DNA of 57,626 nucleotides, from the IMG/VR virus record IMGVR_UViG_3300045988_064576, one strand, 5' to 3'. Both the position numbers and the translations under genes were made by a program. The notes below the pieces were generated by a model, which ran no database searches, had not been told where the DNA came from, and worked only from the letters and a program-made list of their open reading frames with translations. Source of the DNA: a virus. Within the stretch, counting starts at the first letter, position 1. Each line of letters opens with the position of its first letter. Positions 1 through 57,626 of the stretch are shown here, one piece after another.

Positions 1-119
1 AAGAAAAGAAGTTGAAAAAATGACGGATGAACAGTTAGAAAAATTTATTGATTAGCCGAAACGCTCCGACCTTGGAGCGTCAGCCGTGGGATGGTCTCCC
101 GGCTCTGATGATGGCAGAC
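1..119. repeat. Terminal direct repeat: assembly overlap of a circular (or terminally redundant) genome with a 57,507-bp unit
   Basis: Bases 1-119 read identically to 57508-57626. Confidence 0.95.
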
Positions 120-125
120 TAAAAA
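46..125 (+). ncRNA. Candidate hammerhead self-cleaving ribozyme, type II topology (second partial copy at 57553-57626 is the assembly overlap)
   Basis: GAAAC (58-62); 7-bp hairpin ACGCTCC/GGAGCGT (61-80); GUC with predicted cleavage after C81; stem I hairpin AGCCG..CGGCT (82-104); CUGAUGA (105-111). Stem II (46-57 with 113-122) is imperfect and has an extra U after A9. Confidence 0.65.
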
Positions 126-233: not shown

Positions 234-292
234 AGCAAGTAAATAATTGGCAAGGTTGGCACGCTTCCGGGGTTCGATTCCCCGGCTTGCTT
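234..292 (+). ncRNA. tRNA-like acceptor/T-arm mimic (not a full tRNA)
   Basis: 7-bp acceptor-like helix AGCAAGT (234-240) / GCTTGCT (285-291). Canonical T arm CGGGG-TTCGATT-CCCCG (268-284). Only 27 nt lie where the D and anticodon arms should be. Confidence 0.4.
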
Positions 293-332
293 TTACCCGG
301 AAGGGAATAAATAAAAGAGAGGTAAAAACATT

Positions 333-5264: not shown

Positions 5265-6629
5265 CTAAAAATTCTTTAATTGAATTTCCACATTTCCGTT
5301 GACTATAATTATCTTGTCTATTATAGTCTTTAATATCTTGTTTTTAGCTGGCTTGTCGATGTCGTCCCAAACATCGGCAAGTTTTTTAATATTCTCGTAA
5401 ACAAATTGCTTTTTCGGATTGTTGTCTCCGGACTTTTGTTCTTCCTTGATTGAATCGTCGAGGTTTTTTACTTTTGATTCCTGATCTTTTATCATATCTA
5501 AGACTGTATCGTTTCCGTCGGCGTATAATTCATACAGCCGTTTCAATTTTGATTTTTCCTTATCTAACTGCGACTGCATTATGTCTATCTTGTTTTCTTT
5601 TTCTTTTGGCTTATATTTTGACAGATTTACAGATATTTTCAGCATTTCCGATTCAACAATATTCTCGATATTATCCGCCCATTCTATAGAGTTATCGCAA
5701 TCGTTGTTAAAGTTCGGAAGATAGTACAAATCCTTATTCCGTGAGCAGCAATAAATCTTTCTAACTCCATTCGTCCATTTTTGATAACGCATCTTGCAAC
5801 CGCAAACTCCACAATAGCACAGACCTGTAAGCATATTGGGAGTAAGGTTTTGGCAATAAGATTTTTTGCTTCTTCTTGATTTTCTTATTTGCTGTGCCAT
5901 CTCAAACTTATCTTTATCAAAAATAGGTTCGTGAAGTCCTTGGTATATGTTCCCTTTATACGGAATCATCCCTATGTTTACAACACCTGTCAATATGCTT
6001 CTTACAACCAATTCGCTTGTATATCCTAAAATTCTTTGAATCGCTACATCGGAATTTCCGGCGATAAACAAATCAATAGCCTTGTTCGCTTGTTCTGCTC
6101 GTTCCGGAATTGGTATCAATATGCCTTTTTCTTTGCTGTATGTATAACAATAAGGCGTATTCCCTCCACCCATCCAATACCCTTGTTTGACACGTTCCAG
6201 CATTCCTCCACGCATACGAAGCATCATAGTATTCTTATCAAGCTGTGCAAATACAGCCATCATTTGAGTATATGCCTGCTCCATCGGACTGTCATAAGAT
6301 ATTGAATCGTGAACGCACTTAAATTGCACGTTGTTGGGTTGAAAAACTCTTTCAATCATGTATATTCCGTCAACCATACTTCTTGACAATCTATCAAGTT
6401 TGAATGCGACAACACATTTCACACGTTTTCTGCCGCAATCGTTTATTAGCCTTTGCAACTCCGGTCTATTCATATTAGCACCGGTATATCCGTCATCAAT
6501 GTACCAATCAGAAATAATCAATTCGTTTTTTCTACAATACAATTCTATGTCTCGCTTTTGGCTTTCAAGTCCGTTTCCTTCTTCTGCCTGTTTTTCTGTC
6601 GAGACACGCATGTATGCAACACATTCCAT
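5265..6629 (-). CDS. Large serine recombinase (integrase)
   Basis: 454 aa; N-terminal resolvase motif YMRVSTEKQ and DRLSRS; Cys-rich zinc-ribbon CYCGVCGCKM..IYCCS; coiled-coil C-terminus. Confidence 0.9.
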   Translation of the reverse strand: MECVAYMRVSTEKQAEEGNGLESQKRDIELYCRKNELIISDWYIDDGYTGANMNRPELQRLINDCGRKRVKCVVAFKLDRLSRSMVDGIYMIERVFQPNNVQFKCVHDSISYDSPMEQAYTQMMAVFAQLDKNTMMLRMRGGMLERVKQGYWMGGGNTPYCYTYSKEKGILIPIPERAEQANKAIDLFIAGNSDVAIQRILGYTSELVVRSILTGVVNIGMIPYKGNIYQGLHEPIFDKDKFEMAQQIRKSRRSKKSYCQNLTPNMLTGLCYCGVCGCKMRYQKWTNGVRKIYCCSRNKDLYYLPNFNNDCDNSIEWADNIENIVESEMLKISVNLSKYKPKEKENKIDIMQSQLDKEKSKLKRLYELYADGNDTVLDMIKDQESKVKNLDDSIKEEQKSGDNNPKKQFVYENIKKLADVWDDIDKPAKNKILKTIIDKIIIVNGNVEIQLKNF

Positions 6630-51473: not shown

Positions 51474-51573
51474 AATCAATACCTCCGCTTGATATTATTC
51501 CGCTAAAACAATAAATCCAGCAAACAGGCACAGCGGAAGTGCTTTTCGGTAGCTAACCTAGTTTGCTGTTAAA

Positions 51574-51663
51574 TGGAGAAGATAGGAATTGAACCTATAA
51601 TGTTTACCGCGTGGGAACAGATTTACAGTCTGCCGCAACACCACCAATCGTTGCCGCTTCTCC
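51574..51663 (-). tRNA. tRNA-Tyr (GTA), class II
   Basis: Acceptor GGAGAAG/CTTCTCC; anticodon arm GCAGA-CTGTAAA-TCTGT; long variable region; T arm ATAGG-TTCAATT-CCTAT. Confidence 0.7.
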
Positions 51664-52052
51664 ATGTGCGGTTTCCGATGCAGACATTGTAACCGGTGTG
51701 GTATGCCATGCATCGACATTTTTAATTTCGGCAGGGAATACCGCAACGCCTGCCTATCCGGTTGCGAACCGGACTCTTGATGCGGTGTGGATTTGCACCA
51801 CACATGAAATTCCGTTAGTTAGTCTGCACCTACGAATAGGGAAAAATGGATTTTTATTTTCTAACGGATTTATTGGTGTAATTGCTTACAGCTTTTTACC
51901 AGACTTGTTAATAGCAATTCTTGTCGCACACCTTTTTCTTAACCATTGATTAGCGTTTACCTATTTCGCCACGCATCAACTCACATACAGGTTGGTTTTA
52001 GGATAATACAGATAACCAACAACTATATTTCCATTTCACTTGTATGTGAGAA

Positions 52053-53561: not shown

Positions 53562-53617
53562 ATTTTGTTTGATTTTTCATTGTCTGTATGTTATCATCAA
53601 TGCAGGAGGTGCATATT

Positions 53618-53764
53618 ATGCCGAATGATATAAAATATAGTCCGTTTGCAATAAGGCTTCCGTCCGATCTTCGCAAAGAGCTTGAAGATAAAGCAAACGC
53701 CGAAAGCAGATCGCTATCTAACCTTATCGTAAGAATCTTGGAAGAGTGGGTTCAGAATAATTAA
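53618..53764 (+). CDS. Ribbon-helix-helix (CopG/Arc-like) regulator, divergent from the recombinase
   Basis: RBS AGGAGG; MPNDIKYSPFAIRLPSDLRKELEDKANAESRSLSNLIVRILEEWV. Confidence 0.65.
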   Translation: MPNDIKYSPFAIRLPSDLRKELEDKANAESRSLSNLIVRILEEWVQNN

Positions 53765-56767: not shown

Positions 56768-56796
56768 ATTATAACGCTATCGTTATATTATGTCAA
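56768..56796 (-). promoter_or_regulatory. Promoter with an RHH-type operator in the spacer (leftward, P2)
   Basis: Minus sense TTGACA-TAATATAACGATAGCGT-TATAAT. Confidence 0.55.
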
Positions 56797-56813
56797 TAGT
56801 TTTTCCAACTTTT

Positions 56814-57044
56814 TCAATCCATAAACGGACATTTACCCGAATCGCCTTGATCCGCTTGATCTTCTGTGATTTTTTGCTGATCTTCTAAGTGATCAAGCAC
56901 ACATTTAACTATAAATCCGTTTAGGCTTTCTCCTGCTGCCGCTCTGATCCGCTCCTCATCTTCTTTTTTGAATCTTACAAGAGCCTTGAAATATGCGTTT
57001 TTTTCATATTTAGCGGTTGCTTTTGCTTGCGCCTTTGTTGCCAT
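56814..57044 (-). CDS. Ribbon-helix-helix-like regulator
   Basis: 76 aa; ..YFKALVRFKKEDEERIRAAAGESLNGFIVKCVLDHL; flanked by ATAACG-N4-CGTTAT palindromes. Confidence 0.55.
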   Translation of the reverse strand: MATKAQAKATAKYEKNAYFKALVRFKKEDEERIRAAAGESLNGFIVKCVLDHLEDQQKITEDQADQGDSGKCPFMD

Positions 57045-57077
57045 AATAACGCCACCTTCCTATATAATGATAGCGTT

Positions 57078-57106
57078 ATTATAACGCTACTATATATATA
57101 TGTCAA
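57078..57106 (-). promoter_or_regulatory. Promoter with operator (leftward, P1, drives the RHH gene)
   Basis: Minus sense TTGACA-17 nt-TATAAT, overlapping the palindrome TAGCGTTAT-T-ATAACGCTA (57072-57090). Confidence 0.55.
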
Positions 57107-57239
57107 TGCTTTTATAAAGATATCGTTATTATAACGCTACTATATAATATAGAAGGAAAGCAACATATAAAGCTAGCTTTATACATATTGCACAATGAAT
57201 ATATAATGATAGCGTTATATATTTATGCATTATTCCATC

Positions 57240-57268
57240 TTGTAATAATATAACGATAGCGTTATACT
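57240..57268 (+). promoter_or_regulatory. Promoter with operator (rightward, drives the small plus-strand operon containing the ribozyme)
   Basis: TTGTAA-TAATATAACGATAGCGT-TATACT; the 17-nt spacer is identical to that of P2. Confidence 0.5.
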
Positions 57269-57316
57269 ATAACCAAGTTAAGAAACCAAGCACCAAACGA
57301 AAGGAATGAATCAAAT

Positions 57317-57433: not shown

Positions 57434-57562
57434 ATGGAAAGATCTATTTTAGAAAATATGGTATTTGCTTTCATGGTCGGAGAATTAGGAATTGAACCGA
57501 TCACAGCAAGAAAAGAAGTTGAAAAAATGACGGATGAACAGTTAGAAAAATTTATTGATTAG
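57434..57562 (+). CDS. Hypothetical peptide (42 aa); its stop abuts the hammerhead
   Basis: RBS AAGGAGG; MERSILENMVFAFMVGELGIEPITARKEVEKMTDEQLEKFID. Confidence 0.45.
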   Translation: MERSILENMVFAFMVGELGIEPITARKEVEKMTDEQLEKFID

Positions 57563-57626
57563 CCGAAACGCTCCGACCTTGGAGCGTCAGCCGTGGGATG
57601 GTCTCCCGGCTCTGATGATGGCAGAC
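57508..57626. repeat. Second copy of the terminal overlap
   Basis: Identical to 1-119. Confidence 0.95.

Follow-up and report, generated by a model that had tools for sequence, protein, structure and literature searches.

Does the RNA at a junction between small phage genes cut itself, and what would such a cut be for? The question is raised by viral record IMGVR_UViG_3300045988_064576, of which we analysed a whole stretch of 57,626 nucleotides (nt), called here the window, and in which an earlier note, made from the letters alone, had placed a near-canonical type II hammerhead ribozyme immediately after the stop codon of a small open reading frame (ORF). We consider it very probable that positions 54-123 of the + strand are a genuine type II hammerhead of the pseudoknot-stabilised subclass of bacteria and phages, and that the element acts as intercistronic punctuation of a + strand operon. 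As a hammerhead it is a further member of a class described in 2011 (PMC3088659) and of modest interest by itself; its context, which includes a candidate antisense small RNA (sRNA) and a family of tRNA-like elements, raises the value of the locus above that of the ribozyme.

A type II hammerhead ribozyme at positions 54-123

The search with Rfam covariance models that the earlier note had called for gave a significant match. Hammerhead_II (RF02276) aligned with positions 54-123 (+) over the full length of the model (1-66 of 66) with a score of 64.6 bits (gathering score, 37 bits) and an expect value (E) of 3.6e-11 for the whole window and 1.3e-12 for a search of positions 1-2000. The alignment recovered the complete core, comprising C3 to A9 (CUGAUGA, 105-111; C105, U106, G107, A108, U109, G110, A111), G12-A13-A14 (G58-A59-A60, 58-60), the pair A15.1-U16.1 (A61-U80) and C17 (C81). 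With C17 assigned to C81 of the GUC triplet, the cleavage site predicted from the alignment and from hammerhead chemistry falls between C81 and A82 (81-82, +), which is where it had been drawn before.

The minimum free energy (MFE) fold of 54-123 alone was the expected three-way junction. The stem III hairpin (61-80), seen in both the MFE fold and covariation, pairs A61-C67 with G74-U80, that is, A15.1-U16.1 plus six pairs, and is capped by the loop GACCUU; the stem I hairpin (82-104) has eight pairs, with 87.5% of cells paired in the 30 same-length relatives described below; and stem II joins G55, C56 and C57 (55-57) to C115, G114 and G113 (113-115). Loops close stems I and III, and the strand ends open in stem II. 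The earlier base-by-base layout (GAA, stem III, GUC, stem I, CUGAUGA) agrees with the sequence, and the assignment to type II stands on the RF02276 score, the complete core and this topology. Moreover, an exact 30-mer, CGAAAC...CAGCCG, was found in eight independent viral contigs, most of them with an equal Rfam score. A permissive Rfam search of the window, taking matches up to E 0.05, returned no other ribozyme or known RNA near the hammerhead.

An apparent second hammerhead at 57561-57626 was rejected as the same element read again. The first 119 bases of the window (1-119) are exactly the last 119 (57508-57626), which identifies the contig as circular, 57,507 bp long and recorded with a terminal overlap. 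Owing to this overlap, scanners count features near either end of the window twice.

Stem II is short and a pseudoknot joins loop I to the 3′ tail

To collect relatives, viral contigs were searched with the subtype pattern GCCGAAAC...GTC...CTGAYGATGG, which matched more than 120 of them (a lower bound), with about 111-116 distinct variants among the matches listed. The earlier note had seen the weak point of the element in stem II, citing an inserted U and a mismatched helix. The inserted base is real: U112 (112, +) lies between A9 and G10.1, occupies an insert state in the Rfam alignment and is common to the whole subfamily, across the more than 120 viral contigs. The mismatched 10-bp helix, 48-57/113-122, was rejected, as pairing beyond GCC/GGC equalled the shuffled control in 116 relatives; the proposed outer pairs formed in a fraction of 0.07-0.50, compared to 0.07-0.52 after shuffling. 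Stem II instead consists of three pairs, G55-C115, C56-G114 and C57-G113, seen in the MFE fold and in the relatives; the partner of G55 was paired in 97% of the 116, and the three G-C pairs, being fixed by the search pattern, are uninformative for covariation.

The apparent weakness of stem II disappears once it is seen that the 3′ tail pairs with loop I as a pseudoknot. In the window, the strand U92 G93 G94 U95 C96 in loop I (92-96, +) meets G117 A118 C119 U120 A121 in the 3′ tail (117-121, +), forming U92-A121, G93.U120, G94-C119, U95-A118 and C96-G117. Loop I and the tail covary among the relatives (UGGUC/GACCA, UGACC/GGUCA, UAGCC/GGCUA, UUGCC/GGCAA and others), and at least four contiguous pseudoknot pairs were present in 109 of 111 variants. 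Natural type II hammerheads are described with the same build: stem II is very short, loop I forms a pseudoknot with the 3′ tail, and mutation followed by rescue showed that fast cleavage depends on this pseudoknot (PMC3088659).

We quantified covariation in stem I and the five-pair pseudoknot on 30 relatives whose stem I is equally long, aligned without gaps. Paired cells amounted to 82.6%, compared to 65.3% after shuffling, and the covariation score was 0.482 against 0.181, a value that none of 500 shuffles reached. Sliding the 3′ partner by 1-3 columns lowered the paired fraction to 33-47%. Changes on both sides were observed in seven of eight stem I pairs and three of five pseudoknot pairs. 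Furthermore, pairing was kept across 84 distinct hairpins for stem III and 87 for stem I, with many compensatory pair types, and in two otherwise unrelated phage records, conservation was limited to the ribozyme of ~80 nt, at about 80% identity. The identity and fold of the element are thus shown by sequence and covariation.

As a separate observation, a 112-kb viral contig (IMGVR_UViG_3300033112_000310; L024, 588-8205) carries a series of seven hammerheads of this subtype in 8.5 kb, an extreme example of ribozymes that flank one gene after another.

The ribozyme is fitted between cistrons

The element begins, as had been noted, at the TAG of the 42-aa ORF: the stop codon (53-55, +) overlaps the first two ribozyme positions. 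This arrangement recurs. Among 98 distinct relatives with enough flanking sequence, an upstream ORF of at least 30 codons on the same strand stops at 0/+1 of the G of GCCGAAAC in 61, and a Shine-Dalgarno (SD) sequence with a start codon follows the core by 10-40 nt in 64. No + strand terminator was found within 100 nt downstream in any of 131 relatives, and the ribozyme is oriented as its flanking ORFs are. The fit to the stop codon, the fit to the SD sequence and the absence of a terminator together indicate that the ribozyme is a tightly fitted intercistronic spacer.

Intercistronic mRNA cleavage is therefore its likely role, and the benefit of the cut is what this context suggests. The nascent RNA would fold into the three-way junction, with the loop I/3′-tail pairing holding stems I and II parallel, and, going by its class and by the chemistry established for hammerheads, would self-cleave behind C81. 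Upstream of the cut, the mRNA would keep its stop codon and extend 26 nt beyond it, to a 3′ end with the stem III hairpin and a 2′,3′-cyclic phosphate. The downstream RNA would begin with a 5′-OH at A82 followed by the stem I hairpin, which in typical relatives would stand just ahead of the ribosome-binding site (RBS). Such a cut could uncouple the stability and translation of the flanking cistrons and thereby punctuate a polycistronic early transcript. Processing of long phage transcripts into gene-length mRNAs was proposed as a role in 2011 (PMC3088659).

Several points weigh against this reading. A U is inserted behind A9 in the core, and stem II comprises three pairs; one added stem II pair lowered activity in a different construct with a 1-bp stem II (PMC3088659). 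The pseudoknot pair G93.U120 is a G.U pair at a position that is mostly G-C in relatives. The usual downstream gene is deleted in the present phage, which may have relaxed selection on the ribozyme. More generally, the biological benefit of phage hammerhead cleavage is regarded as unproven, and a review describes the suggested role as needing work (PMC6765202).

A candidate antisense RNA directly behind the ribozyme

What, then, follows the ribozyme in this phage? The earlier note had described a structured region at 120-330. Structures are present there, but they are not a single one: the region divides into a putative sRNA locus (121-190), an ORF remnant (204-242) and a tRNA-like element (247-297). 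In the present phage and about 20 related contigs, no RBS directly follows the ribozyme; its place is taken by an A-run and a hairpin, GGCGGC...GCCGCC (127-155), which lies directly behind the hammerhead in all 15 exact-match contigs and in 18 of 20 looser matches.

The hairpin is better explained on the - strand, where it has 12 pairs including G.U (-22.5 kcal/mol, z -3.4), than on the + strand, where it forms only 6+2 pairs. A + strand structure or terminator was accordingly rejected, since the 12 pairs exist on the - strand only and a + strand U-tract is missing; the A-run, which on the - strand is a U-tract, precedes the hairpin in all copies. In 19 of 20 copies, and across four unrelated flanks, ACCTTTC is preceded at a distance of exactly 6 nt by a perfect extended -10 (TGnTATAAT, -). 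Read from the sequence, the locus is a candidate gene for a ~55-nt antisense RNA (121-175, -), with a start at ~175, a terminator hairpin at 155-127 and a U-tract (U6) at 126-121, preceded by the extended -10 TGCTATAAT (182-190, -; TGnTATAAT in relatives). Its sequence would be the complement of the leader that cleavage by the hammerhead would expose, and one subclade of the ribozyme would carry a cis-antisense sRNA wedged directly behind it. A search of the phage for a trans target of the sRNA 5′ region matched only its own locus, and Rfam 15 gave no meaningful match for the candidate region.

The -10 lies inside a variant-specific inverted repeat (177-189 in the window; also in L001, L042 and a fourth variant), with the forms GCTATA/TATAGC, GGGAATT/AATTCCC, GACTGT/ACAGTC and GCCGAT/ATCGGC. 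The repeat covaries even before an identical downstream gene and is a candidate operator or 5′ untranslated region hairpin.

Next in line is a 12-codon remnant ORF (204-242, +). Comparison with L004 5879-6211, where both genes are intact, shows that it joins the first seven codons of one small gene to the last five of the next, which indicates a deletion of ~290 nt in the present phage. Here the ribozyme would precede a leader complementary to the candidate sRNA, then the tRNA-like element and two small ORFs.

Alternative explanations for the ribozyme

The stop-codon overlap and the candidate sRNA raise the alternative that cleavage is regulated, as by a switch, and not constitutive, with the terminating ribosome or the antisense RNA tuning leader cleavage or duplex decay. 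As the upstream stop overlaps stem II, a terminating ribosome would unfold the ribozyme, and the stop abuts it in the 61 of 98 relatives counted above; the sRNA would pair with 121-175, beside the pseudoknot strand, and its conserved extended -10, strand-specific terminator and position directly after the hammerhead in 18 of 20 copies are in keeping with regulation. Most subfamily members, however, lack the sRNA module and have an RBS directly after the pseudoknot, the pseudoknot and the hairpin are 6 to 14 nt apart in different copies, a variation that speaks against precise structural coupling, and tight gene packing alone could explain the overlap. We therefore regard such a switch as unlikely.

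A role at the DNA level is more improbable still. The block of hammerhead plus hairpin (53-228) is 97-98% identical between phages (L001-L008, L042, L080, L098, L131-L136), whereas the sequence directly 5′ of it and 3′ of ~228 switches among unrelated cassettes, at least four upstream and at least four downstream, in various combinations. The block thus marks a mosaic recombination joint, and it could be conserved as shared sequence for cassette recombination, with RNA cleavage incidental; near-identical blocks among different cassettes and a similarity that stops exactly at the ribozyme 5′ end would suit this explanation. DNA homology would not, however, yield compensatory changes in stems I and III and the pseudoknot around an invariant catalytic core, and the joints are better read as a consequence of conserved functional RNAs at gene boundaries. 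An inactive relic or chance match, to which the deletion of the adjacent downstream gene and the extra U in the core might point, is the least credible explanation given the E of 3.6e-11, the intact core, the recurrence of the 30-mer in eight independent viral contigs, most with the same Rfam score, and a U insertion common to more than 120 covarying relatives.

A tRNA-like element at a neighbouring junction

With self-cleavage at one gene boundary as the preferred reading of the hammerhead, the question arises of what stands at the other boundaries. At 247-297 (+), we found a tRNA-like element, its stems followed by UUUUA, that our own covariance model, R1, scores at 73 bits (E 4e-20). Its sequence is GGCAAG-GUUGGCACGCUU-CCGGGG-UUCGAUU-CCCCGG-CUUGCU-UUUA. 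An acceptor-like stem (249-254/286-291) is stacked on a perfect T arm (267-285, loop UUCGAUU), with six pairs each, and a 12-nt GG-containing linker joins the acceptor 5′ strand to the T arm; the anticodon arm is absent and the whole measures ~44 nt. Neither ARAGORN nor the Rfam tRNA model called 247-297 a tRNA, and no cloverleaf forms; the architecture is that of a minihelix, in which an acceptor stem and T arm of about 12 bp carry a tRNA-type T loop.

The element belongs to a family. In 1.2 Mb of loci that had been fetched solely for carrying a hammerhead, the T-loop motif GGTTCGANTCC occurred 64 times outside called tRNAs, compared to about 2 expected by chance, and most copies showed the same architecture with different but complementary stems. 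Examples elsewhere are L004 6212-6260 and L056 11054-11102. The R1 model, built from 15 copies, finds 37 at E<0.001. In these, 98.3% of cells were paired, compared to 85.9% after shuffling, although the alignment was fitted to R1, which is a caveat on its pairing figures; the covariation score was 0.326 against 0.102, with none of 500 shuffles as high. Both sides had changed in seven of 12 pairs, and the loop-closing G-C was invariant in all 35 distinct copies. In a model-free test, 75% of copies had an acceptor helix of 6 bp or more, compared to 23% when 3′ flanks were swapped between elements. On the R1 alignment, RNAalifold predicted only the T arm; the acceptor helix is supported by the pair counts, the model-free test and the single-sequence MFE fold.

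The placement of these copies resembles that of the hammerhead. Twenty-six of the 37 start between -3 and +2 nt from the stop codon upstream; where a downstream gene was detectable, a strong RBS mostly follows after 20-50 nt; and 33 are preceded, at a distance of 200-1100 nt, by a hammerhead of the same strand. The association was also observed in an independent sample chosen by tRNA-like sequence only, which comprised more than 120 contigs and 79 loci with enough upstream DNA: among the 79, a hammerhead was found upstream on the same strand in 35, downstream in two and on the opposite strand in none. In 20 loci where the pattern search found no hammerhead, Rfam added two upstream Hammerhead_II matches and no other ribozyme class.

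Two other origins for the family were weighed. A phage attachment site (attP) remnant of a host tRNA was rejected: the integrase, a large serine recombinase, lies 5 kb away, the 5′ acceptor strand is included, and the copies covary, follow stop codons and number up to two per operon. That the element is merely an intrinsic terminator keeps some probability for type A copies, in which UUUUA follows; several other subtypes lack a U-tract, and a gene with a strong SD sequence begins 20-50 nt later.

A possible diverged second tRNA-like or terminator element (506-550, +) emerged from comparison with type B copies in L001 and L003. It lies directly after the 57-aa ORF (333-506) and keeps the stems ACCGC/GCGGU and CGCCGG/CCGGCG; its T loop reads AGCGAUA, a U5 run follows, and it was flagged as terminator-like. 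The R1 model does not detect 506-550; in L001 and L003, the loop at the homologous position is an unaltered UUCGAUU. On these sequence features, it may be a decayed tRNA-like copy acting as a terminator.

Two possible kinds of punctuation

The tRNA-like family had no meaningful match in Rfam 15, and we found no description of it in the literature; it is apparently undescribed. An attractive hypothesis is that its members are host-enzyme counterparts of the hammerhead at other junctions. Tentatively, and with less confidence than an even chance would give, we propose that the hammerhead and the tRNA-like element may be interchangeable punctuation marks of small phage early operons, the latter cut by RNase P and/or RNase Z. 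Each gene junction would then carry an RNA element abutting the upstream stop codon, ahead of the next RBS, and this element would be either a hammerhead or tRNA-like. Processing of the tRNA-like copies would parallel mitochondrial tRNA punctuation and plant t-elements.

If this is true, two chemically unrelated modes of cutting would serve equivalent positions, and the locus would offer the clearest comparative evidence so far for intercistronic cleavage as the selected function of phage hammerheads. The fit of stop codon, ribozyme and RBS across about 100 variants leads to testable predictions on why phages keep self-cleaving RNAs, and so does the oriented association of hammerheads with tRNA-like elements at neighbouring junctions. 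The element might, moreover, serve as a compact tool that naturally insulates one cistron from the next.

Genome and operon context

Searches against PHROGs identified a terminase large subunit, portal, major head protein, tape measure protein, RecT, an SbcC-like protein, a DNA methyltransferase, a large serine integrase (5265-6629) and a small invertase, a gene set that indicates a temperate siphovirus-like phage. Its host is probably a member of the Lachnospiraceae: the sole genome match to the ribozyme sequence was a contig of an uncultured Lachnospiraceae metagenome-assembled genome, and phage records with a similar ribozyme came from primate and human faeces.

Nearly all genes lie on the - strand, and the ribozyme sits within a small + strand island that contains, in order, ORFs of 37 and 42 aa, the ribozyme, and ORFs of 57 and 55 aa, the latter two accompanied by terminator-like hairpins. 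The 42-aa ORF is listed at 57434-57562 and ends at position 55 once the 119-bp circular overlap is removed. That the ribozyme belongs to a rightward operon, as the earlier note had supposed, was borne out: its strand is that of the short + strand operon, downstream of operator-like palindromes and of promoter-like sites, with the promoter region at ~57180-57270. The small + strand ORFs of the window and the cassette genes of relatives had no Pfam or PHROGs match.

Upstream, an 18-bp palindromic motif resembling TATAACGnTAnCGTTATA occurs six times at 56769-57265, overlapping two perfect - strand promoters (57106-57078 and 56796-56768) and + strand promoter candidates; the set is probably the operator array of a phage switch region. 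The earlier note took the rightward transcript to be controlled by a ribbon-helix-helix (RHH) protein; the putative regulator, a divergent 76-aa protein (56814-57044, -), had no Pfam match at E<=10 and no sequence relative in the PDB, and its single-sequence AlphaFold model was unreliable, with helices only and a predicted local distance difference test (pLDDT) score of 54.6. A separate ORF (53588-53764, +), 3.5 kb away, encodes an RHH_5 protein (Pfam, E 5e-7).

A ~600-bp stretch at ~790-1400 contains no convincing ORF, is 89-94% conserved in relatives and has no Rfam match. It includes a near-consensus + strand promoter (793-821), four copies of CGCAAAAGATCAGC (962-1159) and an AT-rich segment with inverted repeats (1217-1330) and repeated AAGAAACATAGGGG, and it looks like a replication origin with iterons or a long non-coding RNA. 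At a distance from the operon, an int-alpA RNA (RF02996; 51501-51568, -) adjoins a tRNA-Tyr gene (51573-51664, -). In three independent phage loci, this RNA stands 3-5 nt downstream of a tRNA gene of the same orientation at the end of a tRNA cluster; further examples of the arrangement are L140 6183-6247 and L234 4902-4968.

Comparison with known systems

An extra residue between A9 and G10.1 is also carried by the hammerheads of chrysanthemum chlorotic mottle viroid (CChMVd) and the satellite RNA of arabis mosaic virus (sArMV), which are of type III and belong to circular RNA replicons. The extra core nucleotide of the window element occupies the same position, whereas the hammerheads of CChMVd and sArMV use loop-loop tertiary contacts. 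RiboJ is an engineered hammerhead insulator that trims upstream RNA and leaves a 5′ hairpin before the RBS. Typical relatives of the window ribozyme are similar in having an SD sequence and ATG 10-40 nt after the core; they differ in being natural phage elements.

With the type II hammerheads of bacteria and prophages (RF02276; Perreault et al. 2011, PMC3088659), the window element shares the core, the topology, the short stem II and the pseudoknot, as well as the habitat, an intergenic position in a prophage operon that has an integrase gene within a few kb. Compared to the RF02276 consensus, it has an extra U after A9 and one more stem II pair. It is present in a single copy and not as a pair around a gene, and in its subclade the ribozyme is separated from the next gene by a candidate antisense sRNA module. 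Prophage operons of Clostridium scindens, Azorhizobium and Agrobacterium contain tandem hammerheads for which cleavage was shown in the course of in vitro transcription (PMC3088659); their intercistronic placement in polycistronic transcripts is like that of the window element, for which cleavage is predicted.

Among tRNA-like RNAs, the nearest analogues are the t-elements of plant mitochondrial mRNAs, on which RNase P and RNase Z act to form mRNA ends (PMC1920247). Like these, and like the 3′ modules of the MALAT1-associated small cytoplasmic RNA (mascRNA) type, the element at 247-297 is a tRNA-like structure beside coding regions; unlike them, it lacks an anticodon arm, measures about 44 nt and lies between cistrons of a bacterial-type operon. 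HDV-like (hepatitis delta virus-like) theta ribozymes occur directly 3′ of real tRNAs in gut phages (PMC10879173). They resemble the present system in that a small self-cleaving ribozyme and tRNA-type structures would work together in RNA processing in gut phage genomes. They belong, however, to a different ribozyme class, and in our case the hammerhead and the tRNA-like element stand at different junctions, a gene apart.

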